A stretch of 64,000 nt of DNA from Octopus sinensis. Its lineage: Eukaryota. The stretch covers positions 47,058,001-47,122,000 of the forward strand of contig NC_043006.1 of assembly GCF_006345805.1 (NCBI RefSeq). The letters are read 5' to 3'. The translations under genes and the position numbers were made by a program. The notes beneath the pieces were generated by a model. It searched no databases. It was not told where the DNA came from and saw nothing but the letters and a program-made list of their open reading frames with translations. This document shows, one piece after another, positions 23,327 through 49,700 of the stretch (the stretch's first letter is position 1; every line of letters begins with the position of its first letter).

Positions 23327-23471
23327 CAGTTCTATATTTAAGAGATGAGGAATTATGTACATTATTTAGGTTATTTACAATTGACAGATATTTGTCCTCA
23401 TCTTGATTGGCGTAGTGGTTAAGAGTGCGGGCTACTAACCCCAAGATTCCGAGTTCGATTCCAGGCAGTGT

Positions 23472-23503
<32 letters not shown>

Positions 23504-23694
23504 TAATAATAATAATAATAATAACAACAACAACAACAACATCGAAAGCTACCTTAGGAACGAGAACCCACTTTCGAAAGTTCCTAAAGACACCTCATGA
23601 AGGCTGGGGGGTATATCAGCCGAAACGTTGTGGTAACAACAAACAAGTTGAGGACAAATATCCGTCAATTGTAAATTATGTCAATAATATACAT
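23327..23694 (+). mobile_element. tRNA-head/(AAT)n/HHR element, copy 1, with inverted tail copy at its 5' end
   Basis: Inverted tail 23327-23405; A-box TGGCGTAGTGG 23408-23418; B-box GAGTTCGATTCC 23451-23462; (AAT)n(AAC)n; HHR 23589-23634 (CUCAUGA variant). Confidence 0.85.
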
Positions 23695-23909
23695 CTAAAT
23701 ATTGATACACATATACATACATGTACACTTACATGCATGAGTGTGTACATGTGTACGTATACATGTGTACATACACACATACACACGTACACACTTATAT
23801 ATATACATATATAGATTTGTACATATATACATCCGCGTGTCTGCATATCTCAAACTTCTTATCGTTGATGTTGCTTCTCCTCTCCCTCCGTATTCCCCTC
23901 TTCCTTCTC

Positions 23910-24180
23910 CTTCTACTACTACTACGAACACCACTACTACCACCACCACAACCAACACTACTACTACTACGACTACTGCCACTGCCACTGCTACCACTAC
24001 TACTACCACTACCACTACCACCAACAACAACAGCACTGCTACCACCATCAGAACAATCACTACTACTACTACTATTACTACAACTAATACTGCTACTACT
24101 ACTACTACTACTACAACTACTACTACTACTACTATTACTACAACTAATACTGCTACTACTACTACTACTTCTACTACATC
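23910..24180. repeat. (ACT)n/(ACC)n imperfect trinucleotide repeat
   Basis: Directly visible; explains the poly-T/L/V ORFs. Confidence 0.92.
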
Positions 24181-24369
24181 AGTAATTCGTAGTTTTTACT
24201 GCTGTTCTCATCATCACCTTCATAATAATTAGTGTGAATATTATCATTGAATTTCTTGAAATTTGCACGCGTTGAAACGTTCCAGGCAATGCGTTGAAAC
24301 CCTTTTCTTGTTGCATGCATAAAATAGCATCTCGTTACATATGCCCATACACATACACGCACACATAAG

Positions 24370-24370
24370 G

Positions 24371-24432
<62 letters not shown>

Positions 24433-24489
24433 CATAGATAGATAGATAGATAGATAGAGAGAGAGAGTGAGAGAGAGACATATAGATAA

Positions 24490-24556
<67 letters not shown>

Positions 24557-24613
24557 TACAGATAGGTAGAAAGACATATGGATAGACAGTTAGAAAGATT
24601 GACAGATAGATAA

Positions 24614-24676
<63 letters not shown>

Positions 24677-24677
24677 T

Positions 24678-24739
<62 letters not shown>
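24370..24739. repeat. (TAGA)n microsatellite arrays
   Basis: Directly visible. Confidence 0.95.
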
Positions 24740-25135
24740 GCAGTATAGACTGAGGATTCTCATTGGATTGTTTAACAGTTTACCTTCTCCACAGTCGACA
24801 TCGATATAGCTAAGCTGAAATACGTAAACATGTTTCTCTCCTAATAAGCAGACGATTGTTGGGGAAAACTCTCAAAACATCTATAATCTGGTGCTTTTGC
24901 ATCTGAACACAGCTGGCTGTAACAGCGTGTGATGTGAAGCATACAAAAAATGGCTTTAATAAACGGTTTTAGATTAATTTAAACAGTTCAACGAGTATAT
25001 ACATGTGCAGGAACATACATGCTGATTCTTGAAACGTTAATGATAGTTAGAATGGCGATGATGGTGTTAACAATAACCAAAGAAAATTTCTACATTGTCA
25101 ACAACAACTACTTCAAGTAAAAATCGTAGTAGTAA

Positions 25136-25350
25136 TAATCCTTTCTATTATAGGCATAAGGACTGAGATTTTGAGGGAGGGGAGTAATCGATTACATCGA
25201 CTAAGCGTTTCACTAGTACTTAATTTATCGACCTCGATAAGATGAAAGGCAAAGTCGACCTCATCAGAATTTGAACACAAAACGTAGTGACGAGCAAAAT
25301 ATCGCTAAGCATTTCGACCAGCGTGCTAACGATTCTGCCAGCTCGCCGCC
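25136..25350 (-). mobile_element. SINE family A, short-tail subfamily
   Basis: Ends ..gattctgccagctcgccgcc (reverse complement of the head); core aagatgaaaggcaaagtcgacc. Confidence 0.88.
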
Positions 25351-25374
25351 AAATCATCGTAGTAATAATGATTG

Positions 25375-25680
25375 CTGTTGTTTGTTCTTTCTCGAGCCAT
25401 GCCTGGCTCATAAGGGCCGGTTTCCCGGTTTCCTTGGTGCATAGGTTCCCCACTTGGATGGGACGCCGGTCCATCGCAGGTGAGCTGCAAGATGCAAGAG
25501 GAAACAGTGAGAGAAAGTTGTGGCGAAAGAGTCAGCAGAAGTGCGCCATTATCCCTTGCCGGAACGCGTGTGGCTTAGGTGTTTCGCTCATTTACACACA
25601 CATCACCCGGTATGAGATTCGAATCCGCGATACGTCGACCGTGAGTCCGCTCCTGTAACCACTACGCCATGTGCCTCCAC
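25375..25680 (-). mobile_element. SINE family C with 14-bp TSD
   Basis: Reverse complement homologous to 19454-19771; TSD agtaataatgattg at 25361-25374 and 25681-25694. Confidence 0.85.
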
Positions 25681-25906
25681 AGTAATAATGATTGTAATAA
25701 CAATATATTTTCTATAACAACAACAACAACAACAACAATTGTTCCTACAATAGGCACGTTGGCTGAAATTTCACGAAGGGTTAGTCGATTGTATCAATTC
25801 TTTTAATGGAAGGTTACTTATTTTAGAGCACCAAAAGAGATGGATTGCAAGGTCGCCTACGTTGGAATTTGAACTTTGAATGTACAATCGGAGGAGATCC
25901 TACTAA

Positions 25907-26307
25907 GCAGGAGTGGCTTTGCGGTAAGTTGCTTGCTTACCAACCACATGGTTCCGGGTTCACTACCACTGCGTGGTACCTTGGGCAAGTGCCTTCTACT
26001 ATAACCTCGGGTCGACCAAAGGCTTGCGAGTTGATTTGGTAAACGGAAACTGAAAGAAGCCCGTCGTATATATGTATATATATAGTTATATGTACGTGTG
26101 TGTAAATGCTTTTGTACCTGTGTTTGTGCCCCCCAACATCGCTTGGCAACCTATGCTGGCGTGTTTACGTCCCTGTTACTTATCGGTTCGGCAAAAGAGA
26201 GGGATAGAATAAGAACTAGACTTACAAGTCCTGGGGTCAATTTGCTCGACTGAAGGCGGTGCTCCAGCATGGCCACAGTCAAATGATAGAAACAAGTAAA
26301 AGAGTAA
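25907..26307 (+). mobile_element. SINE family B, full length
   Basis: Colinear with 32451-32846. Confidence 0.9.
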
Positions 26308-26349
26308 GCAAATCTGTAGTAACAATCCTGCGAAATCACAGTCTAATAG

Positions 26350-26760
26350 TAATAGTCCTTTCTGCTATAAATTAAGGCCTGACATTTGGTGGAAAGGACT
26401 AGTCGAATGCATCGATCCCAGTGCTTCCCTGTTACTTAATTTATCAACCCTTAAAAGATGAAAGGCAAAGTAGACCTCGATGGAATCTAAATTCAGGAAA
26501 CGTAGTGACCGGCGAAACACCGCTAAGCAATTCGTCCAGAGTGCTAAGAATTTTGCTAGCTCAGCGCCTTTTAGTAATAATGGTTACTTCAAATTGTGGC
26601 AAAAGTCCATCAATTTTACGGGTAGAAGGTGAGTCGATAACATCAATAACGGTACGTGGTTAGTTGTTTATTTTATCCACCACAAAATGATAGAAAAGCA
26701 AAATTAAACTCGTTGGCATTTGAATGCCTGAGGTAAAGAGCCAGCAAATATATCGTCGGA
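26350..26760 (-). mobile_element. Two successive decayed SINE family A copies (26350-26568 and about 26580-26760)
   Basis: Core aagatgaaaggcaaagtagacc and head remnant gctagctcagcgcc; the second copy is more degraded. Confidence 0.7.
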
Positions 26761-26838
26761 TAATTTTTTTTTGTGTCATGAAACGAATCTACAAATACGT
26801 TGATTTAATGCGACAACAACAAAGGAAAATACATTATA

Positions 26839-26873
<35 letters not shown>

Positions 26874-27399
26874 AAATATGATAATCTTCTCTTATTCATA
26901 ATCACACAATGGTGATATTATTGATGTTCACAACAAATACACTGCTATTACTATCATAATACAAATGGTTTTATTCTTTGGTAACAAGGGCCAAAGATGA
27001 TGGAAGCATCATGAGAGTGAGATTATGTATACATATGTGTGTGTGTCTGTATGGGTGGGTGTGTATGCATTTATGTATCAGTGTATGTAGGTATAATAAG
27101 AAATTATTTCAGTAGTGATCTGCGTAGTTTAAACGGATGAGATCAGAAAAAATAATTATTATAAGTACACATAAATAAAATAACAAGCGAGAGTAACAGT
27201 CATATGACAAGGTGTACCTCATAGTGTGTTGGCGGAGGGTAGCCACACACTGAGTTGTTCTATTGATGATGGTGATGATGATTATGATGATGATGATGAG
27301 GAGGATGAACAAAAATAATATGATGAAGCAAAAAGAATACCATATACAAATTTGTTGATTCACCACAAAAATCCCTGAACTTACATTGCAAAAACAACA

Positions 27400-27686
27400 G
27401 CAGCAGCAACAATAGTATTATTATTATTATTAATAATATTATTATTAGTATTATTATTATTATTATGATCCTCATCATCAACATCATCATCATCATGATC
27501 ATTATTATTATTTGTATTATTTTCATTATTAATATTATTGACATCACCATCGTCATCATCATCATCGGCATCATTATTATTATTATTATTATTATTAACA
27601 TTAATGTTATAAGTATTATTATTATTATTATTGTTATTATTATAATTATTTACATTATTATTAGTAGTATTGTCATTATTATTATT

Positions 27687-27719
<33 letters not shown>

Positions 27720-27775
27720 ATTATTATTATTACTGCTTGTGCTACTACTATTATTATTGGTAGTAGTAGTTGCTG
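27400..27775. repeat. (ATT)n/(ATC)n/(GTT)n compound microsatellite
   Basis: Directly visible. Confidence 0.92.
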
Positions 27776-28199
27776 TTCTTGTTAGAAAATGTTACCACAT
27801 AGATTTCTTGCTTACGCATTATCTGGCGGAGTGGATTTAGCATAGGAAGAGAAATGAAGAGAAACGAGAAGAAAGGAAAACAACGAAAGAAGACAAAAAA
27901 AAAACAAAAAAAAAACAACCTAAATACTGCATCAGATAATAAGATAATAGGAAGCTAAAACAAAAACACGCACGAAAAAAACACGAAGCAAGATCAACAG
28001 AATATACTATGACTTCAGTGTTTTGCAGCTGCGCACTCACATGAGGATGCGGCACATACGCATCCTCATGTTCATATATATACGTATATACATACACATT
28101 TCTACATACGCGTGTATATACATATATATATATATATCTATATAGGGAGAGAGAGAGAGAGAGAGTGAGCGGAAAAGAGAGAGAGGGAGAGAGAGATGC

Positions 28200-28250
<51 letters not shown>

Positions 28251-28381
28251 CATATACGTTTTCATACATACAAATATACATATATACATCCACATCCATA
28301 TCTCTGTTTCTATCTATCTATCAACCTATCTATCTTTCTATCTATCCATCCATCCATCCATCCATCTATCTGTCCGTCTAC

Positions 28382-28435
<54 letters not shown>

Positions 28436-28470
28436 CTATCTATCTATCTATTTATCTATCTATCTGTCCG

Positions 28471-28501
<31 letters not shown>

Positions 28502-28552
28502 CTATCTATCTATCTATCTATTTATCTATCTATCTGTCTGTGTTTTGAAAAT

Positions 28553-28583
<31 letters not shown>

Positions 28584-28624
28584 AGATATATATATATATA
28601 TATATATACAGAGAGAGTGTGTGA

Positions 28625-28680
<56 letters not shown>
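28200..28680. repeat. (TA)n, (TATC)n and (GA)n microsatellite cluster
   Basis: Directly visible. Confidence 0.92.
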
Positions 28681-28682
<2 letters not shown>

Positions 28683-29769
28683 TAGATAGATAAGTAGATT
28701 CATAGATAGATAGATTTTTCAGGTTTCCGTGTGTGCGATACAAATATATTTACACAATTTATTGAAACGAAAAGGAATCTAACACAAATGATACAGTGAA
28801 AACAATATATTTAGGAAAGGTCCCCTCGTGCTAAGTGTGGTGTTGTTGGTGGAGGTTTTGGGAGTATGGATAAGGTTATCGGTATTAAATGCATCACTGC
28901 TTTGCGGTGCAATAAATTCACGTGGAAATATGGAAATCTCGGCGTTCGTGCAGAAGTTCAACGGCGAATTGAAACCTGTGAAAAAGAAGCGACAAAACAA
29001 TCACACACGCGCAAGCTCATACTTACACATACTGCACTTATTTATGCACATATATATACATATATTTACTTGCATGTGGTTGCAAAAATATATTTGGCGT
29101 TTTGTTTTTTTCTTTCTTCGTTTATTTCGCTTTATATACATCGATTTACATAATATTTAAACGTGACGGAAATGCAACGATTGTGACCTGTCAGACAGGT
29201 TCAAAGTAGTGTGTAACAATACCGCGTGTAATTGTGTTCTTTTACGTCAGTGTTGTGAGCTAGCATGGTTTTGCATACAATATGTAAACACACTCACACC
29301 TATAAATGTACATACGTTGTTAAGGGAAACATTCTATCCAGCTTGTGTGAATGTCAATGTAAATCCCATTCTTATACACACACACAGCAGATATACATAC
29401 GTACGTACATATATATATATACATATATGTGTATGTATGTATATATATATATATATACGTATGTATATATATGTATACATATGTATATATATATGTATGT
29501 ATATATATATATGTATATGTATATAAAGAGAGATAGAGAGTGAGAGAGAGACCCATATATTCATAAGGTATATATACATATAATATATATATATCATATA
29601 TATGCATATACATAGATACACAAATACATACATGCGTATATATATACTAGTGTACATATATCAGGCTATGTTATTGGCAATATCTAATCCAGTACCACTT
29701 GATGGGGTTGTGCGGCGACTAAGCCTCACCTTCGCCAAGCAAGCGTAATAAAGAGCTGCTGAAAACAAT

Positions 29770-30230
29770 GTAGGATGAACAAGAGACGTGCCAAAACAAT
29801 GTTTGAATCCTGTAGCTATCTCGCAACAAGGAGCCAGAATATAGAAAAAAATAATAGTGATATTGAACTAGAGCTTTGTAATGCCATAGAGAGAGAAGGA
29901 TATTTGTTTTTCTTAAACAGTGGTGGAGGTTGTAGTAGAATCTGTACTGTTTATCTTGAGCATGAGCATGATACACTCCACAGCTTGTTTAAGATAGGAT
30001 CCCGTTGCACAAATCCTGACAGTTAAACCCGTTAAAACTCTTACAACTGCATCCATTTGTAATAACCAAAGATCCAAAAAAATCATTATTTTGAGTTTCT
30101 CTCTTGTCTGGCAAGCAGGGCACTATGGTGGTGTGGAATACATATTTTTATAACCGATATTTAACATGCTATGCATGAGCAGGTGTTGCTAAGAAAAAGG
30201 ATGTCGCTTTTCCGGCCGGTGATATTCATA
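29770..30230 (+). mobile_element. Probable relic of a Helitron PIF1-like helicase region
   Basis: ORF 29775..30026 contains GYLFFLNSGGGCSRI (cf. GxLFFLxGxGGxGKT Walker A) and TLHSLFKI (cf. TAHSxFKIP); highly degenerate. Confidence 0.45.
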
Positions 30231-30452
30231 TTGTATCTATAATCGGGTTTTGAAACCGTGCGAAAGTAGATAGGTCGAGACACCAGTAACTGCGAACCAT
30301 GAAGACATGAACTTCAGCTATTTGCTGGCAGTGGCTAAGAGTGCACTGCTGTGCATTAATTATTTCGGTGTGAACCGACCGGTGCAAAAAGTGTAGCCTT
30401 TGAGTGGTAGCCCATCGTCTAGTGTCCCTTACAGCTTCATGTTGTATGTGTT

Positions 30453-30515
<63 letters not shown>

Positions 30516-32450
30516 AGGACTTTCCTGTCGTAAATAACAGATGCGGATCCCTTAATTTGCTAGAGCCATCAATTCGATATTGCAAATATATGTATATAGA
30601 ATAACACACGATAAGAATCAAGTGATCGCAGATCAAACTGAAAATATTTTGCTACGTTCGCGTTGCTGTTCTATGAAGACTTTAATACGTCTACCAATTT
30701 ATCTCGTTCTCTCTCATTTTCTTTTAAAAAGTAGCCGTGTTTATTTTGAGGGTGAAGAAATACAGGAAATTACACAACATGCGATAGAAATATAGTGTGA
30801 AAAAACAACAAATCATAAATAATGTACAATCAAACGAAATGCACAAATAGAAAGTGCAATAGATATTGTAATGTTTCGGACGACATATATTAAAAAGAAA
30901 GAAAAGTTTTGAAACAAGCCTGAGAAAAATTTACTAGCATGTAAAATGGCGTACTATATTCGGTATTATATATTTATGCACTTTCCCCAAAATACTCGTG
31001 TTGCGTGTTATATCATGTTCCCATTTTAAAGAAATGAGAAAATATTTTTCACCCGTATTTAGTATATCTATTTAGAAAACACCCTAGGACTATTAATGAA
31101 TTCATATATAGAATAATTATGAACAACGATATTCGGTCTCCCAATGTTACGATACAAAACCGTAATGTTACCTTTAGTTACTGTTATATCACAATACTAC
31201 ACAGTGGCTGCGTGAGCTACGAAATCCTAATCGCCACTGTTATGTCGCACGTTTGGATGACCGCTACTCAGCTCTACTCCTAGTGCTACTCTTCGTCTAG
31301 ACTTCTCCCTCTATATCTACGTATTGGGATACTCTACTTCATCGTCTGGGGTCGTCCACACAACAGTTACATTAGAAAACATGAAAACGGAGCTTACTCC
31401 ACTCTGTTTCTGTTACTGTAAATGCTAATATCAGTATCAATACCTAGATTATTATCAAAATTACCATTCACATAATCCGTACTAATACGGGCATTGTTAT
31501 TAACAGGATTACTTACAATTCGAATAGTAATAGAGAAGGGAGAAAATATAACAATGATAAAAGTTTTTTCTATGAGTAACTCTAGTAGAATTATTCACTT
31601 GAAAAGGATTATATTCAAATTTTTACTCTACCTTTTCTTAATTTCCGACCATTTATAGCATATACGGGCAATATTTGTAGTTAATGCATACAGAAAAAGT
31701 TAAACAAAATATCGAGTACTTATTGACTAGTGAAATGCAATGCAAAAATGTTTTTATTTGTTTCTCTAAAACTATATTACAATAAAAACATTCTAAATGT
31801 CTCTTCCATTGTATTTTGTACTTAGTGTATATGCAAAAATACGCAGGCTATAAATATTAATGACAAACAAGAAGAAATACGGTGAACTATAAAAAGAAAA
31901 AGCAATTCGAAAATAAAAATATGTATGATATAAATGTTCGTGGATGTGAAAAAAAAATACATATTGCATTATCTTACGTAAGCTGTTCAATGATTCTATA
32001 AATAGGTTCATTAAAGAAGGAAGAAAATAGCCAAGGCGGTCAGGAAAATGTGTTTTTATCTTCAGGTTATTCTAGTGTGTTGAGACGAAAAGCGTTGATA
32101 GATTGGTGTATTTTTGCTGTGGTTAGTTAAAAGAAGTAATATCTGTAGCAGACTGTAGTGTACAGTAGTAATTGTTGTGCTTCAATATTTTAAAAATCAT
32201 GTCTTTAACGAGTCTAGGACGTTTACTCCTTATGGGCACTTACTTACCCCTGAGGTCAACAGATGATGATTTAAAACTTCTTAATTTATTAGACGGGGAT
32301 AATTAACCAATGGGTGTAATTGTTCCGAGGAGTAGTTACCGTCGGGGGGGGGGGTTGTCCTATGGAGGTATAGTAATAATTGCACTAGGGTAGGTAATTG
32401 TCCTGATACGTTCTTTAACAGATATTTCAAGAGATATTTTAATTGATTTA

Positions 32451-32846
32451 GGCGTAGGAGTGGCTGTGTGGTAAGTAGCTTGCTTACCAACCACTTGGTT
32501 CCGGGTTCAGTCCCACTGCGTGGCACCTTAGGCAAATGCCTTCTTCTATAGCCTCGGGCCGACCAAATCCTTGTGAGTGGATTTGGTTGACGGAAACGGA
32601 AAAAATCCGTCGTAGATATGTATATATAAGTGTGTGTGTTTATGTGTCTGTATTTGTCCCCCCCAACAACGCTTGACAACCGATGCTGGTGTGTTTACGT
32701 CCCCGTAACCTAGCGGTACGGCAAAAGATACCGACAGAATAAGTACTAGGCTTACAAAGAATAAATCTTGGGGTCGATTTGCTCGACTAAAGGCGGTGCT
32801 CCGGCATGGTCAGAGTCGTATGACTGAAACAATTAAAATAGTAAAA
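32451..32846 (+). mobile_element. SINE family B, full length (used as reference copy)
   Basis: tRNA-like head (tggctgtgtggtaag..ggttccgggttcagtccca), CORE-like accttaggcaaat, internal TA/TG spacer, 3' half ending gactgaaacaa..aaaa. Confidence 0.92.
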
Positions 32847-33089
32847 GGAAACGATTAAGATAAAATAAAATCCTGCAAAGACCAAAATATGAAAAAATGT
32901 TAAAATCTCAAAAGTCAAGATTTGGAAATGAAATTATCTTGATGAAATTATATACTAATAATTCAGTTGCTTAAATAATGTCCTGAAGCAGATATTTAGG
33001 TAAAAAAAAAACCGCAAAGGATGACAAAGCATGGTAGAGAGGACCACACGTTGAATGTAACGTGGACTACCTAATTTGTACCTTATAGT

Positions 33090-33304
33090 GATTTTAACTA
33101 TTGGCATAGAGCAAGTACTTTCGAGGGAGTCGATAAGTCAAATCAATTACATCGACCCCAGGGTGCAACTGAGACTCGTTTTCTCACACGTGAAAAGGTA
33201 AAAGCAAAGACCATCGTCGATGGAACTTGAACTCAGAGCCTAAAGACGCACGGAATGTCGCTCAGCATTTTCCCCGGCTTACTAACGATTCTGCTAGCTC
33301 GCCT
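33090..33304 (-). mobile_element. Decayed SINE family A
   Basis: attacatcgaccccag..ttgaactcaga..ctaacgattctgctagctcgcc. Confidence 0.75.
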
Positions 33305-34633
33305 GTCCGAAACTGGTGTCTTATATCAGTAAAACACACATAGTGGGGTCAATTTTCGGAGAAAAAACCTATTTGGTTTTCAAGTTCAAATTGTAGCTGG
33401 ATCCACAATTCACTACACCATTGTACAGTAGTAGTGTTACTTAAAAAACCCAAAAAAGACAAAACGGAAACCACGTAATAAGTGAATCAATTACAGCACT
33501 TTTATAAATTTCTGAGCATTGTGTCATTTTAGACATTATCACTTTATATACAACCGTGGTGGGCGAACGAATCTCCAGTGTGACTTATAATAAAATTTTA
33601 TTACGTGTTTCTAAAATGTGAATCCCAATGCCGTCGTGGTCGACAATTCGATTAATAAGACAATTTCGCTCGAATAGTTTTGTTGTTATAAACCAAACAA
33701 AAACAAAACAGAAATTCAACATTATTTACTTTTCTAAGTTTTTTTTTCCATCTCGTAAGATATTTAAAAGAAACGAATCTTCCATTTTGGAGGTCTTTGT
33801 ACAAGAATTCTAGATGAAATGACCCAGAAACGAAGATCACAGGACAGACACTATTAAGAGACGCATAGTTCTATTCCGTCAAAGCTTATCGTATTTCCTT
33901 CTGTCAAATTTAATGTATCCTTAGTTTATGTATACATATCATCTTACGAGCTTGGAGAAAAACAAATATCAATATAATCAATATATATATATAATATATA
34001 TGTGTGTGTGTATTCATATTTATGAATGTTCATATATATAATGTATATGTATTCATATATATATATATATATTATTTATATATATATATATATATATAAT
34101 ATATATATATAGATGTGTGTGTGTGTACATATATGATTAAAGAGCCCGAGTAAATGGCAGCAGTGAAGTGTGTTAAAGATATATGGTGTAAAGAATGGTT
34201 GACATACATAGCCGACATATTATATTTTATTTCTTTACAAAATCAATAATTGAATCGATATGCCTAATGTTTTGTATGATAAATGATTCATCAAAATAAA
34301 AACTTTATGTCTTATGTCTTCCAGTCAAGTATGAAATGATATGTAACATTTCTGAATATATCTTTGGTAAAACAGGTTTCAATTCACAAGGATTTAATAT
34401 ATGTCTGACTTAGCTCTCTGCTTTAAGACCCAGACAATTTATTGCATTGTGCCAATGCACATTTGAATTTTAGCAAGTTTTATACTTATACTGTATACAC
34501 ACACACACGCACATACATACATACATACATACATCTATATATAAAACATATATATATATATATATATATATATACAGTATATATACATATGTATATATAT
34601 ATATATATATATTATACATATATATATATATAT

Positions 34634-34681
<48 letters not shown>

Positions 34682-38164: not shown

Positions 38165-38203
<39 letters not shown>

Positions 38204-38379
38204 GAGAGAGAGAGGTTATGAGAAGTAATGACTTCAATAAGACCCAGAGGTGTCAGGTAATGCTGAGTACTTTAAATGAAACCCTCGATTCAATAACACT
38301 TTGTACAAACTCTATACTTGGTACGACCAATTTTAAATACTATCGGAACTTACTTATAAGGTATTGGAATTTTATATGT

Positions 38380-38630
38380 ACACCATTCTGTCTAAATAAT
38401 GTATCTACAGATGCAATATCCCTGCATATCTCACGTCTATGTTCATTCCTCCACTTCACTCTCTATTTCATATTTTATCTAAATTAAATATTGCTTAACC
38501 ATTTTCTCACACCCTCTGCAATGAAGGGACATAATAAATATCCTGGAAACAGCTGTAAGACCTTCTATTTACAAATGATCTAAAATCTTTTACAGCCTTG
38601 GATTTTTATGTCATTCTGAAAATTTGTTTT
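38380..38630 (+). mobile_element. Possible PLE pLTR remnant with degenerate HHR (38514-38560)
   Basis: UCU-GCAAUGA-AGGGACA..UAUCCUG-GAAA-CAGCUG-UA-AGA: palindromic stem III ACAGCUGU and GAAA intact, CUGANGA box damaged. Confidence 0.45.
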
Positions 38631-39989
38631 ATATATACCTATATATATTTTTATATATTCGCGCGCGTACACACACACTCATGCACATATATATAGGAGA
38701 GGATGAACACATACGTTATCTGGTATCGATATTGAGGCTGGGGATCTGAAATACTAAATTCCCTTTAATCCAAAGATGACCTTCACATTAGACTTATGTT
38801 CCTGTAAGTTTGATTTCGGTAGAGTTAGTAATGTGATTCTGAATACGGTAATACTTCTATTTAAGGACTATGTCGATTTGCATCTGCGGGATAACCCGTA
38901 TTATGATATTAAGTGGTTTGTCATCTTTAATCTAGACTGAGGAAAGATAGTGAATTTGGAATTACCAATGGTTTATTTGATTCTGTCAAGATTACCGACT
39001 CTCTAAAGTTGGTTCGAACTGGGTTGACTCTCTCCTAAAAGTTTATATTCTCCTTTCTTTTATAGCAAGACTAATAGAACGCTTACACTGGCCGTTAGAA
39101 ATCTTTATGTATCAATCTTGTTGAAAAGAAGAAACAAATAACTGCATCTCCTGAATTTAGCGTCAGATCTGAACTCCAATACTTACTACCCTTACCTTAA
39201 GTCAAGTGATAAGTTATAATATATAGATACATTATCCACGACTCCAAATTCTGTTAGGTCTAACATAGGAATATTCGCAACAACTCCCATACGATCAATA
39301 ATTAACCACTTCTAGTATAACTCTTGACGTTTCGGTGCATATGTATTAATGATAGCTTCACTAAGTACAGCTATTCACCTATAATTCTCTCCCTCTAAAT
39401 ATTTTCAATATCTTGAGCATATATATTTAAATAGCTATAGCTATTGTGTACGCATTGATCAAAATTTCTCAATGTTATTATTATATTCAAATTACATATT
39501 TTCTAATTCATATTTTTTCAGATTCATATTTCGCATCATTTCACAATAAATTTGTTGATTCTTCATTCATTTATCTCAATCTTTCACCTTATCATGTCTT
39601 ATTTTATTTTTTCTTTCATGTCTTACTCATTTTTATGTATATTTTCTTATCTATAAAATATTATGTTTCATCTATTCAAATGCCGTGTTGTTCTAATCAT
39701 CATATTGTTGAATAGCTTCTTCTACTTCTTTCGCTATCTCCCTGATATGCTTCTCTCCTACTCTTTCCTATTTAGATACAATTTTGCTGTGTTATTATTA
39801 CTATAGGTCTCAGAATGATTCCACTTGCATTACGACATTGTGTATAATCATGCATATATGTCATAATATGTGTTTACCTATGTATTTATATTCGCAGGCG
39901 TATATCTTTGAACATTTTTGTATTTATTTTGAATGTCTTCGTGTAGATGTGGTAAGTGTCATTGTGTATATATATAAATATATATATAT

Positions 39990-40070
39990 GCCCACGGACA
40001 TATGGCGTACGTTTCCGAGTTCGATTCCAGGCAGTGACCTGAATAACAACAACAATAATAATAATAATAA

Positions 40071-40116
<46 letters not shown>

Positions 40117-40149
40117 GTAATGATAATAATGATAATAATAATAATAATG

Positions 40150-40206
<57 letters not shown>

Positions 40207-40577
40207 CTTTCTAATTGATGTATCAATACCGGCTGATGACAACGTGTCTCTAAAAGAAATGGAGAAACTCTCAAAATACAAAGACCTGGAAATAGAGGTA
40301 ACTAGAATGTGGAATCTGAAAACAGAAACAATTCCTATCATAGTAGGTGCATTAGGCATGATAAAAAAATATTCAGACAAATACATAACAAAAACACCAG
40401 GACTTACAAACACATATAACATACAGAAAATTGCACTACTAGGCACTGCACACATCCTACGCAGAACACTTTCCATACAATAACAATCAGAGCATCACAA
40501 CAAATCACAGCACATACCCAAGGCACACAGAGTTGTGCTCGGTAGTGAAGTGAAAGCACCCTATAAAAATAAAACTA

Positions 40578-40641
<64 letters not shown>

Positions 40642-40643
40642 GC

Positions 40644-40702
<59 letters not shown>

Positions 40703-40830
40703 CATCGAAAAATACCTTAGAAATGAGAACCCATGTTAACAGCAAACAATACGTGGACGAATATCCGTCAAACGTAAATAATATAAATAATGTAAATAAT
40801 GCACATAAGTTCTCATCTCTTATATATAGA
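39990..40830 (+). mobile_element. tRNA-head/(AAT)n/HHR element, copy 2 (head and HHR internally deleted), interrupted by a Dong fragment
   Basis: atatggcgta..ttccgagttcgattccaggcagtgacctg(AAT)n ... aacatcgaaaaataccttagaaatgagaaccca..atatccgtcaaa..ctcatctcttatatatagaa. Confidence 0.8.
40205..40580 (+). mobile_element. 5'-truncated R4/Dong LINE 3' end (RLE domain + 3' UTR) inserted in (TAA)n
   Basis: Uninterrupted frame CFLIDVSIPADDNVSLKEMEKLSKYKDLEIEVTRMW..IPIIVGALG..IQKIALLGTAHILRRTL, stop at 40481-40483, about 100-bp UTR, (AAT)n on both sides. TAA targeting is established for Dong. Confidence 0.92.
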
Positions 40831-41496
40831 AATATATATGTGCGTGTATATATGTGTGTGTGTTTGCAGTTTTGGAAATTGGATGTGGAAAAACTTTTAG
40901 GACAGAAAAGGATCGAAAGATGACTCGGACCCAGATCTGCTGTAGACGTGAGAGCCGGTCTACCATTGAACTAGAGTAATATATCGAAGTTTTCCTATGA
41001 ATTTCAGAACCTCCATTCTTTCCCTAGAGAATTATCTGTTGTTGATATGATAGGAACTCATAATATATCATGAGCACGTGAAATAATTGTATTTTAAGTT
41101 TATCCTCGAAATTGCTTTATGTTTCCAAAATCCCCCACTCCCGCATTATCCATTACAATGCATCTTGGCTTAACGGCCTTCGATGATTGTCTTCGACGAT
41201 TGCTTACTCTATACATCCACCGTGTTGGTTTGGTTTGTTCGAAGCTCTAACTCTCTACAAAATTTATATGTTTAAAATTTGTGGATGCTGCTGTTTTTGT
41301 CGTTGAAAGCTCGAAATGAGGAGTAAGAAGTTGACAACTGAGGAGGGGTTAGACTTCGTTTGCTATTTTGTCCCCGTGCTTATGTCTCATTATGCGTTTT
41401 CGTATTTTTCACTCGTTTGTGGTGTCTTGTTTCTTTTTTTATATGTCTGTGTGTGTATGTATGTATGTATGTATGTATGTATGTATACTCATTCAT

Positions 41497-41894
41497 TTAC
41501 TCATTTACTTGTTTCAGTCATTTGACTGTGGCCATGCTGGAGCACCACCTTTAGTCGAGGAAATCGACCCCAGGACTTATTCTTTGTAAGCCTAGTACTT
41601 ATACTATCGGTCTCTTTTGCCAAACCGCTAAGTTACGGAGACGAAAACACACCAGCATCGGTTGACAAGCGATGTTGAGGGGTGGACAAACACAACACAC
41701 AAACATACACACACACACATATATATATATATACATATATACGACGGGCTTCTTTCAGTTTCCAAATCTACTCACAAGGCTTTGTTCGGCCCGAGGCTAT
41801 AGTAGAAGACACTTGCCCAAGGTGCAAGGCAGTGGGACTGAACTCGGAAACATGTGGTTCGTAAGCAAGCTACTTACCACACAGCCACTCCTAC
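41497..41894 (-). mobile_element. SINE family B, full length
   Basis: Reverse complement of 32451-32846. Confidence 0.92.
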
Positions 41895-42226
41895 ATATAT
41901 ATGTGTGTGTGTGTGTGTATGTGTGTGCAGAAGGTTGAGAAGGAAATCAAGAGATGATATATATAAGGAAAATCAGACAAGGTAGAACATTCTAAAATAA
42001 TTTTATCATGACGAACATTTTACTACCGGTTTCCGTTATTGCGACTTTTTCAAGCATGAAACTCAATTAAATGTAATCTTTTTAATCTATTTCCATAGTT
42101 TTCACATGCAAAGGACTTTTTGTTTTTTTTTATGCCTGTCTGTCTCTATTCTTTACTTTCGCAATGGCTGAGTAGCAGGTAGAATCAGTCCTAATGTATC
42201 TCTCTCTCTCTCTATCTATCTATCTA

Positions 42227-42271
<45 letters not shown>

Positions 42272-42982
42272 TATACACATATATGCAGCTATACAACGTA
42301 TAGAAGTGTGAAAGTATTTTAAACTGAAATATCCTTTTTGATGCCAATTCAATTTTCACTTGAGAAACGACTCGTATTCATTTATTTATTTCATAAGAAT
42401 ATTTTGTATCTTTTGTATGAAGTGTCCATTACTACGGATTGTAATGATCTATCTACTTTGGTTTATGCTTTCATAAGCATATTTTCATTTCAACTGTATT
42501 TTATCATTTTCTTGGCAGTTCGGAAGTTGATTAATCTATTTATGTCAATTGCGTAACGTATCGTAGCGGCATATAATTTCATATAGAAAATTTATTTAAA
42601 TACAATCGTCTCCAAAGAAATTATAGATAAAAAGCAGCAAAATTTTGAAAAATACAAGTAAAGAACCGGGAAACAGAACAATGACAACCAAATAAAATGC
42701 TTCATTATAACTACAATAAACCAAAATGTTTAATGAAACAAACTATATATAGTCGCAGAAATAGATTTAACTAACACAAAGCATACAGTATTAGAATTCA
42801 CTATAAGGAAAGATTATTTGAAAAGTCCTAAAACCGAAATATTCTCTTCAAAAGAATCAAGTGTAATAACGAATTGACTTTAAATAAACAATAACATCTA
42901 CGCCGTGTATTGAGTACTCGTTCTTTTAAAAACTAAAATGTTTTAAGAAATAAAACATACATCGAGATATATAGCCTAACAT

Positions 42983-43549
42983 ATCGTGAAGTATATTTCC
43001 ACCTAAATGTGGCAGACGCATAGGGGACGAGGTTACTATTGTTTATAACACAAGGAAGACATCTCCTATAGCTGGCTAACAACACACTGCCTGTGTTCCG
43101 ATTAGTATTTGCGAAAGTTAATCCTCTGAGTGAGGAGTAAATAGTAGCAGCACGGAATCGCTCAGAGATTTATTATTGCTTGATTCTCCGTTTTTGAGAT
43201 CAGCGACAGTTTGTCACTGGAAAAAGTATATGGTATTTTGCGTTTGGAAAGTATATGGTATTTTGCCCCCATAGATAGCTGGTGATTATCACACACTGAT
43301 GACGGGTTATTACACAGAAACTCAGGTCTGTGTGTATCACGTAAGACTAGAGATAGGAACGATTAGTTCCCTTCGCAAATACTAATCGGACACAAACAGC
43401 GTTTCGTTAGCCAACTGGAGGAGATGTCTTCCTGGGGCTATAAACAACAGTAGCATCATCCCCTATGGGTGCACCACATTTAGGTGGCAAATATTATTTA
43501 CGATTCCTTGCTGCTACAGTTTACTTCTCGCTCAGAGATTTATTACTGC

Positions 43550-43550
<1 letters not shown>
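42983..43550 (+). mobile_element. Retrozyme-like element: ~370-bp terminally redundant monomer (43159-43550) preceded by two inverted partial copies (42983-43160)
   Basis: Direct repeat cgctcagagatttatta(t/c)tgct at 43159-43180 and 43529-43550; 42983-43115 is the imperfect reverse complement of 43372-43504; 43120-43160 is the reverse complement of 43501-43540; contains a type I HHR; ends in (TA)n. Confidence 0.75.
43282..43340 (+). ncRNA. Type I hammerhead ribozyme motif
   Basis: GUGAU-uau-CACACA-CUGAUGA-CGGGU(uauu)ACACA-GAAA-C(ucag)G-UC-UGUGUG-u-AUCAC: stem I CACACA/UGUGUG plus GUGAU/AUCAC beyond an internal loop, full core, GUC site at 43326-43328; stem II has two mismatches. Confidence 0.8.
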
Positions 43551-43581
<31 letters not shown>

Positions 43582-43855
43582 TTCTTTTCAATTCTTGGCG
43601 GTAACAAGCTGCATGTGTGTGTGTGTGTGGGGGGCTGCTTCAAGGGACACATCGAACAAATTGTCAGTAGGGAATATTTAGATATTTGGTAGTTATTCTT
43701 TCTTCAAAACACGCGAATGGCTTCCGTACAGTTTCCATCATCTACATTGACTCGCAGGGCATAGGTTTTTCCTGGGGTTACTGCCCAATTTGCCACGCAA
43801 TGGAACTGAACCTGAAATCACAAGGTTTCTTACCAGAATGCCATGCCTGCTACAT

Positions 43856-43908
<53 letters not shown>

Positions 43909-45399
43909 ATATATGTGTGTGTGTGGTGTGTGTGTGTGTGTATATATACATATATGTCAGTATATATATATAATTATATACTCATGTTTGTATACATAGT
44001 CATGTGATTATGTGCCTATCATGCACGCTGCAATATATTGCATTTGATTTTTTTAACTTGAAATTTGAAGAAAAAATAAGATAAATCCTAGCACAGATAA
44101 GATATATTATTGTATTCTTCACTAATGCAATTTTTCTTCCATATTAAACAGTTTAGAACAATTAGAACGAAATGAAAATGTTACATATAAAATATCTGAC
44201 TCCAATATTTCCTATTTTTCTATTTCTGCAACATTTGATGTTATTGTTGTCACGCACAAAGATTAAAAAAAATATTCATCTCTACTTAAAAGAACAAGAG
44301 GCTTTGCGCCAATACATGTTTGCACGAAGAACTGATACACTAAAACACGTATGCACACACGTTGTTGTATATATATATACATATATGTACACTTTGTTGC
44401 ACATATATACATATATGTGTGTGTGTGTGTGTGTGTGATGTATTTACGTATGTATATATGTAGTGAGAAAGAAGCAGATTTTTATATATGTGTATGTGAT
44501 TGTGTATGTGTGTATGTGTCTGTGTGCGTGTGTGTTATTATTTTCCTTCTTCCGTGACCTAAACCGTTTGATTTGGTTTAGATTTTCAAAAGAATCCACA
44601 ACGCTGCTACTTTTTACAAAATATTTTTTCCTGTACAAGTTAGCTATGAATAATATTTTAAGTATAACACACAAACGTACATATAACTAAAGGTATTTTT
44701 TTAATGTAATAAACTATGCAGAAAAAATAATCCTGAAGGCACCTGCATATAATGTATTGTGCTTACGTCAGTTCACGTAACTTAGATATCCATTCACTTA
44801 GATTAAATTTGAAAACATACATAGATATGTCTTACATCTATGTATACAATAGTTAGGAACACATGTTTTATATTAATATCATAGCGTGATATACTCAGAG
44901 ATAAGGCCAAGATCTCATGTTTTATATTAATATTATCGTGTGATATAATTTGATATGGGTCTACAGGACAATTCCATTCAGATTTAATATTTCATATTTG
45001 CTGTAGGCATTTATTCTCGACATTCGAAAAGTATATACAAATAAATATTGGTTGAATTCCGGTTCCAATATAATGACATATGTGCTCCATAATTTATTTA
45101 TGTTTCCTACTAGACAGAGAAGAAAGAAAGGAAAAACTGAACACTTTCATGTTTTATGTTCCTTCGATCCTTATTTCATTACTGATGTTGTTATTGTTAT
45201 TGTTATTGTTCTGATTGTTTGAATATGTAAGCAAAAAGGTTAAAGTCGTGATGGTGTGTATTTGTTTGCTATAGTGTATCTGCCACTACGTCATCGAATC
45301 TGTCCTTCATTTTGACAGATTGAAAAACTTGAAAGGTATTTACAATTTCTAATTGAACCGGTGCTGCGTGATTTGTTTTGTGAGTAGCGAGAAATACTT

Positions 45400-45591
45400 G
45401 TTTCAAATTTTGGCACAAGTCCAGGAGGAGGTAAGTCATTTACATCAACCCAAGTGTTCAGCTGGTACTCGTTTTATTGACTTCGAAAGGGCGAAAGGCA
45501 AAGTCGACACCAATGGCATTTGAACTCAGAATATAACGTCGAGAGAAAGACTTCTAAGCAGTTTATCGGCGCGATAATGATTTTGCAAGCT
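45400..45591 (-). mobile_element. Decayed SINE family A
   Basis: gaaaggcaaagtcgac..atttgaactcagaa. Confidence 0.75.
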
Positions 45592-45640
45592 GAAAACATT
45601 CAAATATAATATTAATAATATTACAAGATATTTGTAAATA

Positions 45641-45857
45641 CAGTTCTATATTTAAGAGATGAGGAATTATTTACGTTATATTTATTATTTACATTTGACA
45701 GATATTTGTCCTCATCTTTGTTGTTAAAACAACATTTCGGGTTCGCGAAAATTCGAACCTGGGTTCTCATTTCTAAGGTATATTTCGGGCATATGGCGTA
45801 GTGTTTAAAAGTGGGGGCTACTAACCCCAAAATTCCGAGTTCGATTCCAGGCAGTGA

Positions 45858-45947
<90 letters not shown>

Positions 45948-46017
45948 CAACAACAACAACATAGAAAAATCCCTTAGGACTGAGAACCCAGGTTCGAAAT
46001 TTCCCCGAGACACCTGA
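45641..46017 (+). mobile_element. tRNA-head/(AAT)n/HHR element, copy 3, with inverted tail copy at its 5' end
   Basis: Inverted tail 45641-45787; head about 45790-45861; (AAT)n(AAC)n; direct tail truncated inside the HHR at gacacctga. Confidence 0.85.
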
Positions 46018-46451
46018 ATGGGTGTTCGTCATCTTGATGCCTTCAAAGAAATCCAGGTGATAATTGAGGAGCAGGTATTGGTTATGTTTGAAAATGGGTG
46101 ATGAAACATGGTTTGAGAGTTATTGATCTAGAAATTAACTTATGACCGAATGCTAGTCAATTGATCCAGGACATGGGATCTGACATCAGTGGGTAGGGAC
46201 TTGTGCGTTTTAAAATCGACGAGATGATCTCGAAACGGTGCACACTCCATATATCTACTGGGTTCCGGGATGCAGTGGTTTTCCTTGATTACGCTAGCAT
46301 GCAGAATTCTCTCCATATAGATACACATATGTGTATATGAATGGAAAAATAAATATATAATTTCCATCATTGCAAACTTAAACTTTAAAGGAACAAATAT
46401 CTTATTTATATTTTTTACATTTGATAGATATTTGTCATCTTGTTTGTTGTT

Positions 46452-46497
46452 AACACAACGTTTCGGTTGATATATCCTCCAGCCTTCATCAGGTGTC
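46452..46497 (-). ncRNA. Minimal hammerhead ribozyme motif
   Basis: GACAC-CUGAUGA-A-GGCUG..CAACC-GAAA-CG-UU-GUGUU; one stem II mismatch. Confidence 0.7.
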
Positions 46498-46574
46498 TTG
46501 GGGAAATTTCGAACCTGGGTTTTCAATCCTAAAGGTAGTTTTCGATGTTATCATCATCATCATCATTATTATTA

Positions 46575-46669
<95 letters not shown>

Positions 46670-46743
46670 CAGTTACTGCCTGGAATCGAACTGGGGGCGA
46701 AAAATAGCTTAGGAATGAAAACTCAGGTTCGAATTTTACCGAA

Positions 46744-46789
46744 GACACCTGATGAAGGCTGGAGGGTATAACAGCCGAAACGTTGTGTT
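46744..46789 (+). ncRNA. Minimal hammerhead ribozyme motif, intact
   Basis: GACAC-CUGAUGA-A-GGCUG(gaggguauaa)CAGCC-GAAA-CG-UU-GUGUU: stem I GACAC/GUGUU, stem II 5 bp, stem III replaced by the palindrome AACGUU, as in dimer-cleaving PLE HHR variants. Confidence 0.8.
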
Positions 46790-49700
46790 AACAACAGACA
46801 AGATGAGGACAAATATCCGTCAAATGTAAATAATGTAAATAATGTACACAATTCTTCATCTCTTACATATGGATCTATAATAGAAATCGAACTTGAAAAG
46901 TAATTTTAAAATGAATATGCTGTTGAAGATATGTTAATATACAGAGAGGCAACCGATAAAACAATAAAAGATTAATGTCAAGATCTCAACTAAGATCCGC
47001 TGTGCACTTCCCATTCACCAAGAGTCTGAAAAATATGAGACATGCTTGTAATGAGAAAGATGTTCTCTTTAGGCTATGAAACTTGTTATGAAATAATTAA
47101 TTGACATGTATATGTATTTATCTCACACAAAAATATTGTTGACCATTTTGTTAAATACGAAAGAATTCTTTGAACATACTTCTTTTTAACATTTTCATAG
47201 CATCAATGTCTGAGATATGTAAACATGGGCAATTTTTATTTCAGTTTCTTTTTCTCTACTGCAGATACAGCCTTAAATGTGTATAATAGGTCACAATAAA
47301 AAGGTGTTTAATTGTCGAAAGTAGTGTGGCTATGGATACCAGCAAAGATATAAACGCATAAGCACCTGACAAACATAGTCATGCTAGTAGCTGATACAGT
47401 TCACTGGTACCGCACACCATAATTGGATGAAGTGATGCTAAGTTGCCGCGCTTTGTGATCGCGATCAGAAGTACTTGAATTCGAAGTGAAATTATAACCG
47501 CATACAAAGTATACTACATACTAAAAATAGAAACGTTAAAGATATGACGCAACAGATACACATCTATAAGGCAGTCGATAAATCTGTGATGTAATTCTTT
47601 GAGTGACGTGCCATATTATTTTATTGAACCTATTTAACAAATAACTAAAGTCCCAAAACGTTTGGAATAAAAGAGCATTTCAAAGAGAACTTTATTGCAG
47701 TTAAGCTATATGATATAACCAGATTAGTTGTATGATCACCGCCGAGCAATTTATATATTATAGACTAGCGAATTGAATTTATCAAAAGAAAAATACTGTC
47801 AAAAATATCTCTAGCAGATAAAAAAGAAATGTGTTTTATTTAAGCCTTAACATAGGTCATAGAGTTTCTTTGCAGTGCCAGTATATATATGACAAGGAAT
47901 ATAATACGCGAGCAAAGGTATGTTACTGTTGTACGCACGTCAATCTTATTATTTATCAAACACACCACAAAAATACTCCAGATATAATCTGTTGGTTTGA
48001 CATAATGTATATATCTTGTGCCAGAATGAAGAATATCGTTTTTTTTATGGTAACATTAAAAGCATAAATATTTCTAATCTCTCTAGTGGGATATAAATAT
48101 ATTGATTCAAACCATATGACATTAAGAATACTGTTGGTTCATTGGTTCAGTGTGTCATATGGTGTCACATGCTGGCTAACAATGATTATTGATTCTTCTT
48201 TGTGCATTGGAAGTTACATAATTCGTACATTGCTTCACTAAATATACTAACATGAAAATGTTAGGAAATAAATTAGTTTGATTTACATAAACTTATGAGA
48301 TAAATCAGTGCATGTGTTGGATTAGGAAAGTTGTTTTACTTTGATCACAGGTGTAGGGTCAAAACTAATGGCATTTGAGTGGAATGCCAGAAAAAAAGCG
48401 CATTCAAACCAAATCTCCACTGAGACCGAAGCACATTCATCTACAGCCGTGTTTCTCGCTATATCAGTCAGCATTGATTTCTAGTTTTCGATCTAAGCTA
48501 GAAATTTATCTGTCGGGTAAGATGAAATTTGAATATCAAAACATAACTGACATGTAGTTGTGACTATGTATGTATGTATGTATCTATCCATCTGCCTATC
48601 TGTCTGTCTGCCTGTCTGTCTGTCTGTCTCTGTCTGTTTATCTACTTTTCTGCATACATACACACTCACATACACGTATACATGCATGCATGCTTACATA
48701 CATACATCCATACATACATATATACATACATATATACATACATATATAAATGCATGCATACATACATGCATATATACATACATATACATATATATATATA
48801 TATACATATATACATACGTGCATATATACATACATACATGCATACATACACACATTTAAATAACGTCACTTGACTTATAATCGAATATATCTTGTTTGCA
48901 AAAAAATATTTATAAAGAAACTGGTACAGATATAGTCATATGCTAAGCAGAAATCAGTTGGCAGATCTGTTATAACGGATAGGGAGTCTTACATTTTCAC
49001 TCTGAAAAGACTTGAAATCTCATAAAAAGTCATTGTGGGGCCGTTTAGGAACTCAGTGAAATGTTCATGCAGGAGTTTATAATAGCGTTGTGAATCTGCG
49101 ATCTACTTTTGTCTTTCAATAGATGCATTTAAAATATTCTAGAGGCCTTTATCTAGAATGAATAGTAGCCTTGATATTGATGAATTTAGCAAGGGGCTAA
49201 ATTTCCTGTATATTCTGCTTGTACCAGCATTCAATTAGGGCTTTAACTTGCTGTATATTGCATCCATTTAGAACGGCTTTATACTACATTCGTTTTTCAA
49301 TTAACAGTAGTCGCTTCTTCGCAAAATATTTTTATGAAATACATTTTAATGTTTGTGGTTGAGAGATACGCACCTACCTCTAGTGGTTTGAAATATGGTT
49401 AATCAAGCTGCACGAAGAACAAGTTGAACTTTATAATTTTTCTTTGAATTCGCTGCCAACAGGAATGAGTGTGTGTGGCGGTGTGATGAAATTCTGATAT
49501 TTTTTATGAGTAGGAGGGAGTACACACACGCGCGCGCAAATATACAGTATAACGAATGGTTTATCAAACATATCCAGAAACTGAACTGTGAAAAAACGCG
49601 CTGAAAGAGAATTATAAATAAACTCCGGCAGTATTTTAACAATGAAATCAAAGCCATAGCTTAATATTAATTTTAATTGATTTTAATTGCATTATATTGA

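Follow-up and report, generated by a model that had tools for sequence, protein, structure and literature searches.

Repeat copies in the window

We analysed a 64,000-nucleotide (nt) stretch of the Octopus sinensis genome (the window; C10:47058001-47122000 of a 2.72-Gb genome), in which four dispersed copies of one repeat are present at the places that an initial annotation, made from the sequence alone, had reported. The repeat begins with a tRNA-derived head carrying predicted A and B boxes, continues with an (AAT)n spacer, and ends in a tail with a minimal hammerhead ribozyme motif. The four copies are almost certainly short end pieces, or pseudo-long terminal repeats (pLTRs), of an autonomous, protein-coding Penelope/Poseidon element residing in the same genome. 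Their parts are given here in window coordinates; signed numbers count from the first base of the complete head (+1), and the long and short ends are the two end positions of the tail described under Insertion anatomy.

23327..23409, minus strand: copy 1, inverted 5'-truncated pLTR arm that reaches the long end
23408..23475, plus strand: copy 1, tRNA-derived head that begins at +8 (A box at 23408-23418, B box at 23453-23461)
23476..23537, plus strand: copy 1, (AAT)n(AAC)n spacer, belonging to the element's 5' leader
23538..23688, plus strand: copy 1, 3' part of the pLTR, i.e., N-terminal coding region, to the short end (codons 2-35 match 23563-23664)
39990..40041, plus strand: copy 2, head starting at about -6 (B box kept; about +14 to +46 deleted internally)
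about 40194..40600, plus strand: 3' fragment of a long interspersed element (LINE), presumably of the Dong/R4 type, in the (AAT)n spacer of copy 2; foreign to the element and 96% identical to a long LINE in locus L148
40701..40837, plus strand: copy 2, 3' part of the pLTR with the hammerhead deleted, to the long end
45637..45787, minus strand: copy 3, inverted pLTR arm with an internal deletion, reaching the long end
45787..45861, plus strand: copy 3, complete tRNA-derived head, +1 to +75, with A and B boxes
45862..45957, plus strand: copy 3, (AAT)n(AAC)n spacer
45958..46017, plus strand: copy 3, 3' part of the pLTR, ending within the hammerhead
46402..46549, minus strand: copy 4, 3' part of the pLTR, to the short end (codons 1-34 of the open reading frame [ORF] at 46526-46428)
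46550..46671, minus strand: copy 4, (AAT)n spacer
46672..46695, minus strand: copy 4, head remnant, about +49 to +72, B box only
46698..46882, plus strand: copy 4, the opposite arm, which extends to the long end (start codon of the ORF at 46715; match to codons 1-35)
46744..46789, plus strand: intact minimal type-I hammerhead motif within coding sequence, read directly against the definition in PMC4209133

The initial annotation had assigned A and B boxes to every copy; both are kept only in copies 1 and 3, with about +14 to +46 lost from copy 2 and about +49 to +72 alone remaining in copy 4. Similarly, the hammerhead ascribed to the tails is intact at 46744-46789 and broken or deleted in copies 1, 2, and 3, its core being mutated in copy 1. 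Inverted arms were indeed seen in three of the four copies (copies 1, 3, and 4). The long end, reported on the inverted arm of these three copies, is on that arm in copies 1 and 3 and on the opposite arm in copy 4, but it is the direct arm of copy 2 that is long, and either arm may be long genome-wide. The window tails translate as codons 1 to 35 of the ORF described below with 76% to 88% identity. No tRNA was found in the window by ARAGORN, and whole-window repeat finding was dominated by microsatellites.

An autonomous Penelope/Poseidon element

What had been described as the tail is the first ~160 coding bases of an ORF, and the hammerhead lies inside this coding sequence. Several copies extend upstream of the head into the C-terminus of a GIY-YIG endonuclease. 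When the genome was searched with the end of the ORF (2922 first-look candidates), the head came after the ORF end in 26 of 29 loci and the tail in 27 of the 29, the query locus being excluded and three of the loci being near-identical duplicates. The upstream part of the ORF gave 323 candidates, and both pLTRs were identified around the ORF in three real copies (L223, L224, and L227). The majority sequence, which was built from 17 long copies and then refined on further loci, contains a single open frame of 835 amino acids (aa) with YVDD and a CCHH GIY-YIG domain, i.e., a reverse transcriptase (RT) and a C-terminal endonuclease. In order, it comprises a head, (AAT/AAC)n, an ATG at about +139, the 835-aa ORF, a 29-nt untranslated region (UTR), and a second head, with the hammerhead at ORF codons ~10 to 25. 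Head and spacer together form a 138-nt leader, and the ORF is open from its first ATG; therefore, no 5'-UTR intron is needed. The real copies are decayed, differing from the majority sequence by ~5.5% on long matches.

Pfam RVT_1 was matched in two of four real segments, and the Pfam GIY-YIG profile gave no match on the one real segment tried; the C-terminal 291 aa are 32% identical (E = 5e-41) to those of P0011, an Anolis protein with 37% identity to the 835-aa ORF. P0011 is probably the Anolis Poseidon PAc, judging from its host, its length, and its hammerhead-coded start. The closest sister protein, P0001 (57% identity), has the same hammerhead-encoded N-terminus. In a tree of a protein set without clade labels, the element grouped with 19 homologues, including P0011, apart from two Neptune-like ORFs (support, 100/100). 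As far as the available text of the cited papers goes, here and below, a CX2-5CxxC linker marks Neptune and Nematis and is missing from Penelope/Poseidon (PMC8557442). The element is placed in Penelope/Poseidon on these grounds, since its endonuclease has the CCHH motif and lacks the linker. The same type of minimal hammerhead motif also follows the ORF in 13 of 28 relatives.

The proposal that the repeat is moved by a Penelope RT/GIY-YIG protein was thus upheld, head and tail being the pLTR of such an element, and the autonomous Penelope-like element with a matching pLTR that the initial annotation had suggested looking for was found in the 835-aa RT and GIY-YIG ORF. Head and tail also behave as one unit, as had been assumed: of 29 loci outside the window that were found by their head, 28 have the tail after it. 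The description of the unit as a non-autonomous short interspersed element (SINE) has to be abandoned, as it is the pLTR of an autonomous element and its tail is N-terminal coding sequence of that element. Two alternatives had been allowed for. The first, an ordinary pLTR of a Penelope-like element, is right as to the pLTR, but this one starts with a tRNA-derived A/B-box head. The second, a joining of head and tail only through shared (AAT)n targeting, was rejected: lone tails are truncated copies or have been split from their heads by a LINE (L143, L147, and L148).

Neptune-like families with TA ends, which made up most of what a genome search with Pfam GIY-YIG found, were rejected as partners of the repeat because none of 30 loci and 20 regions matched the tail. 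These abundant families end in (TA)n and have open frames of 775 to 883 aa (L067, L068, L106, L107, and L091); a degenerate hammerhead-like motif is present near the 3' end of the main one. Direct hammerhead-core pairs 1 to 6 kb apart flanked no ORF, and no common sequence was found beyond the long ends of short copies.

Hammerhead motif and copy number

The minimal hammerheads of Penelope-like elements have a short stem I, a CTGATGA core, one unpaired base, a G-C first pair in stem II, and a palindromic AACGTT without a stem III loop (PMC4209133). The motif at 46744-46789, with stem I GACAC/GTGTT, core CTGATGA, one unpaired A, a 5-bp stem II, and GAAAC-GTT, fits this type by its sequence, and cleavage is predicted after 46784. 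Neither a tRNA nor a hammerhead was matched by Rfam in 45600-46900 (E <= 10), and neither was called among the best 150 of 212 matches of a wider Rfam scan, nearly all of which were microsatellite microRNA-like matches. Hammerheads of Penelope/Poseidon elements self-cleave as dimers or with a protein; cofolding did not give the catalytic fold.

The exact 39-base hammerhead core has 1081 matches in the genome and 0 in a reversed control. Because only 5 of 88 arms found via other queries match this core exactly, the genome may hold, as a rough estimate, ~19,000 hammerhead-bearing arms, which are ~6% diverged. Among the non-CpG sites of the hammerhead, tail position 61 varies most; it is N7 of the CUGANGA core, with A in 23 of 136, and its variation is also a conservative Asp/Glu change in the protein.

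The tRNA-derived head

The head is, on its sequence, a tRNA derivative with A and B boxes, in line with the initial annotation of a Pol III-type (RNA polymerase III) head. Its best match among 24 sequences covering 7 called isotypes was a tRNA-Asn(GTT) gene of the same genome, with 45 of the first 60 aligned columns identical (z, 8.9; next non-Asn gene, 6.2). The isotype is likely rather than proven to be tRNA-Asn, because the head itself supplied the pattern used to find the Asn genes and the comparison covered these 7 isotypes only. According to RNAfold and ARAGORN, the head forms no cloverleaf, and its T stem and acceptor stem are broken. The A/B-box pattern follows the ORF in 0 of the 28 relatives that have sequence there; ARAGORN with relaxed settings gave only noise on relatives and was disregarded. 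The best-matching gene is a variant tRNA-Asn (L260) with three matches elsewhere in the genome, and 14 tRNA-Asn(GTT)-like matches are clustered at C18:42005203-42047824.

Heads attached to an ORF (31) and free heads (80) do not differ in variants (position 64 is A in 10/31 and 20/80, respectively; P = 0.82) or in divergence (6.8% and 6.2%). As they share variants and age, no separate SINE lineage is apparent among them.

Insertion anatomy

Insertions were compared in 63 units, which were drawn from the exact-core list following genome order (30 loci and 34 later places, with two loci merged); places already fetched were skipped, and the sample is biased to younger copies. Both orientations are present in 34 of the 63 units. 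Among units with two arms, one end is long and the other short in 23 of 26, the one-sided extension being ~30 nt. Tail ends (91 in total) fall at positions 126 to 152 (42 ends) or 169 to 181 (47 ends), with two earlier and none at 153 to 168. The short ends lie in or near a 9-nt repeat of the coding tail (window 46823-46850, and also in other copies), which has two or three units and keeps the frame.

The reported lack of target site duplications (TSDs) holds, by eye, for the four copies of the window but not genome-wide, where flank matches of at least 8 bases were seen in 17 of 33 units with defined ends compared with 3.6% of mismatched pairs, and simple repeats account for 4 of the 17. The TSD-like duplications measure 8 to 16 bp. 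Two independent insertions, L112 and L294, share one target site within another repeat, with a 13-bp duplication in L112.

Inverted arms, one-sided extensions, and variable target duplications are standard Penelope features. Penelope/Poseidon insertions have a 30- to 40-nt tail at one end and variable TSDs (PMC8557442), and in Anolis Poseidon this tail is explained by internal priming at two sites that lie downstream of the hammerhead, whose cleavage is unnecessary for insertion (PMC11167929). Two such sites would explain why ~60 to 90 nt beyond the predicted cut site are copied, and the earlier conclusion that the template is not simply the hammerhead cleavage product stands. Short copies outnumber ORF-bearing ones, and 8 of the 63 units extend upstream of the head. 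The same long, short, and head-start ends and the same head junction were identified in sequencing runs of three other organisms.

5' ends at the head and T runs in the sense strand

The 5' starts of the 63 units are concentrated at the head: 27 lie at +1 to +8, 8 units continue upstream, 8 have their start within the head (one of them at a locus edge), 18 start in the spacer or tail, and 2 are LINE masked. Of the 35 units that reach +8, 27 stop at the head start, where 1.7 would be expected (P ~4e-29). Some ends reach -6 to -8 (L041, L274, and L391), and many bear a short fold-back. Among upstream pLTRs joined to an ORF, all three of a first set begin at the head; for 20 of 24 further junction copies, the start lies at the head in 5, upstream in 3, within the head in 1, and in the spacer or tail in 11, so that 5 of the 9 that reach the head start there.

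Runs of four or more T residues (T4) terminate Pol III, which starts at a usual spacing from the A box. No T4 run is present in the 2753 sense bases of the majority sequence, compared with 32 runs of at least four A residues; the decayed real copies have 7 in 25.1 kb. Shuffled sequences contain on average 4.4 T4 runs when bases are shuffled (P = 0.007), 3.2 when codon order is shuffled (P = 0.023), and 2.9 when synonymous codons are shuffled (P = 0.028). Judging from 63 related ORF stretches, each 1.2 kb or longer and taken from 80 loci, 5.9 runs are expected in the ORF with T content allowed for (P of zero, 0.003), and Neptune-like ORFs of the same genome have 9 or 10.

Insertions in the spacer and other features of the window

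The LINE fragment at 40194-40600 belongs to an element with an RT, a zinc knuckle, and a restriction-like endonuclease end, which we take to be of the Dong/R4 type and, presumably, TAA targeting. It is recurrently found in the (AAT)n spacer of the Penelope/Poseidon element, from short 3' fragments to ~3 kb (window 40194-40600; L143, L147, L148, L149, and L153). A second inserter of the spacer is an apparently non-coding repeat ending in CTCTCTCACTC and (AAT)n, seen in L004, L006, L011 (~810-1450), L033, L128, and L192; it is possibly a SINE that uses the same LINE.

Elsewhere in the window, a decayed LINE-like RT fragment is present at 62377-63153 (plus strand), a LINE C-terminal-like fragment at 1417-1770 (minus strand), and a weak match to the RT of a Penelope-like element at 15463-15585 (plus strand; 41% over 41 aa).

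Transcription of the element

Transcription by Pol III is suggested by the tRNA-derived head with its A and B boxes, the pile-up of 5' ends at this head, and the absence of T4. We lean slightly toward the view that Pol III would transcribe the whole coding element from the head. More tentatively, and with a little less than even confidence, we propose that the element is transcribed end to end from a captured tRNA-Asn promoter, that its 2.5-kb ORF has been purged of T4 terminators, that the uncapped RNA is translated via the A-rich leader, and that the SINE-like copies, in their thousands, are the element's own strong-stop products. Pol III would initiate ~6 to 8 nt upstream of the head and read through an ORF holding no T4 terminator. 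The protein would prime reverse transcription ~120 to 130 and 150 to 160 nt into the ORF; two internal priming sites have been shown in vitro for Anolis Poseidon (PMC11167929). Short copies of SINE size would result when priming takes place in the upstream pLTR. They would end at the 5' end of the RNA, at which a small inverted repeat would let the cDNA fold back and produce the inverted arms. Priming in the downstream pLTR would give the longer, ORF-bearing copies. A role of the A-rich spacer as a cap-independent leader is speculative.

Several observations weigh against this model. The A and B boxes are not clearly better conserved than other positions once base composition is considered (the B box substitution rate, 3.6% versus 6.4%, was not used as evidence because the box is T rich), and the assignment to tRNA-Asn has the limits given above. 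The head start is passed by 8 of the 35 short units and by 3 of the 9 ORF-linked upstream pLTRs. A hairpin at -14 to +10 (-9.6 kcal/mol as RNA and -5.4 as cDNA) could itself produce the pile-up, and the 5'-end data cannot separate a Pol III start from a hairpin or an RNA polymerase II (Pol II) start. The absence of T4, which moderately favours Pol III, is of moderate strength (synonymous-shuffle P = 0.028); its P values are 0.07 and 0.23 under first- and second-order Markov nulls, 2 of the 63 relatives also lack T4 on shorter stretches, and runs of at least four G (G4) are absent as well (P = 0.03 to 0.04 by shuffling). Two RNA runs, unstranded and dominated by embedded copies, gave no informative start, and with a family divergence of ~5.5% to 7% the element may be dead.

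The strongest rival builds on these points: the head would be a passenger, a tRNA or SINE fragment captured in the 3' UTR of a Pol II-driven Poseidon element, the pile-up would reflect fold-back at the hairpin or a Pol II start, and the absence of T4 would be due to chance and strand bias. We consider this unlikely, though a serious contender. Against it, the 5' ends accumulate a short way upstream of an A box that is intact, with the spacing that a type-2 promoter has, the hairpin is weak as cDNA, and the absence of T4 is significant against the 63 relatives, unlike that of the G4 control (P = 0.12); on the other hand, many junctions are exact fold-backs centred on the hairpin, read-through beyond the head start does occur, G4 runs are missing too, and known pLTRs hold a promoter and start site (PMC8557442 and PMC6765202).

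An improbable variant divides the labour, with Pol III RNA being reverse transcribed and the protein coming from Pol II read-through of tandem or intronic copies. Tandem copies with an upstream UTR do exist (L173, L381, and L383), and translation of an uncapped RNA would be sidestepped; however, sequence data cannot distinguish this arrangement from end-to-end Pol III transcription. It is very improbable that the head is a processing signal, long read-through transcripts being cut by RNase P at the 5' end of the tRNA to free unit-length RNA: the 5' ends do cluster near tRNA +1, but the broken T and acceptor stems leave no cloverleaf, ends lie at -6 to -8 in L041, L274, and L391, and the absence of T4 would go unexplained. 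Least credible, and largely refuted, is a separate, non-autonomous SINE that would have a tail of Penelope origin and would be amplified from short masters of its own, since, for all the excess of short copies (8 of 63 units reach upstream sequence) and the chance that a solo pLTR with promoter boxes could be re-transcribed, the head is built into the autonomous element and free and attached heads are alike in variants and divergence.

Significance and comparison with known systems

The new feature is the tRNA-derived head at the pLTR start of a Penelope/Poseidon family. The literature searched yielded no Penelope-like element with such a head and no coding Pol III retrotransposon; because Repbase, Dfam, SINEBase, and subscription papers lay outside this search, a catalogue entry for the family, as a plain Penelope or as a SINE, may already exist. 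The available text on a library with 190 Penelope-like consensus families (PMC13282606) does not describe such a head, and that of PMC6962438 held nothing relevant. In the literature searched, a tRNA-derived Pol III promoter in a terminal repeat has so far been described only for non-coding elements. Coding non-LTR retrotransposons are usually assigned to Pol II and SINEs to Pol III, with an upper size of ~1 kb supposed for elements that use Pol III (PMC10886601). If true, a coding Penelope transcribed from a tRNA promoter would break both this division and this limit and would be a natural Pol III messenger RNA. It would also reveal a direct route to SINE-like families, as the autonomous element itself carries the SINE head and would be LINE and SINE in one. 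The sharp 5' ends would locate the RNA start of a Penelope-like element and fit the Anolis internal-priming model, and the short copies are liable to misannotation as SINEs or tRNA pseudogenes.

The short copies resemble tRNA-derived SINEs and the schistosome hammerhead SINEs SM-alpha and Sj-alpha (PMC6765202) in their A/B-box 5' head, downstream hammerhead, and short dispersed form. Unlike tRNA-derived SINEs, they are end pieces of an autonomous coding element, and whereas SM-alpha is non-coding, tandem, and freed by ribozyme cleavage (PMC6765202), here ~60 to 90 nt past the cut are copied. Animal non-LTR retrozymes (bioRxiv 10.64898/2026.07.22.740005) are likewise short hammerhead-bearing sequences related to the pLTRs of Penelope-like elements; the available text on them mentions neither tRNA nor Pol III. 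Retrozymes are tandem and non-coding, whereas the copies described here are mostly single or inverted, derive from coding sequence, and have a tRNA head.

A promoter derived from a small RNA and placed in the terminal repeat is also found in the TRIMp3 elements Cassandra, Helenus, and Ajax (tRNA derived in Helenus), and transcription starting within the repeat has been shown for Cassandra (PMC10886601). However, TRIMp3 are non-autonomous LTR elements of 0.3 to 1.3 kb with a primer binding site and a polypurine tract, their size being tied to Pol III processivity (PMC10886601), whereas the element described here is a 2.7-kb coding Penelope-like element.

In Penelope, an internal promoter lies in the pLTR together with a 5'-UTR intron. 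The octopus element is most readily compared with the Anolis Poseidon PAc (PMC11167929 and PMC8557442), with which it shares a single ORF for an RT with a GIY-YIG endonuclease at the C-terminus, the CCHH motif without a CX2-5CxxC linker, a pLTR that includes the ORF start, a minimal hammerhead that overlaps coding sequence, inverted 5'-truncated copies lying next to the element, a one-sided tail of 30 to 40 nt, and variable TSDs. Unlike PAc, as described in these sources, the octopus pLTR has at its start a tRNA-derived A/B-box head followed by an (AAT)n spacer, its 5' ends lie at that head, and its sense strand is free of T4.

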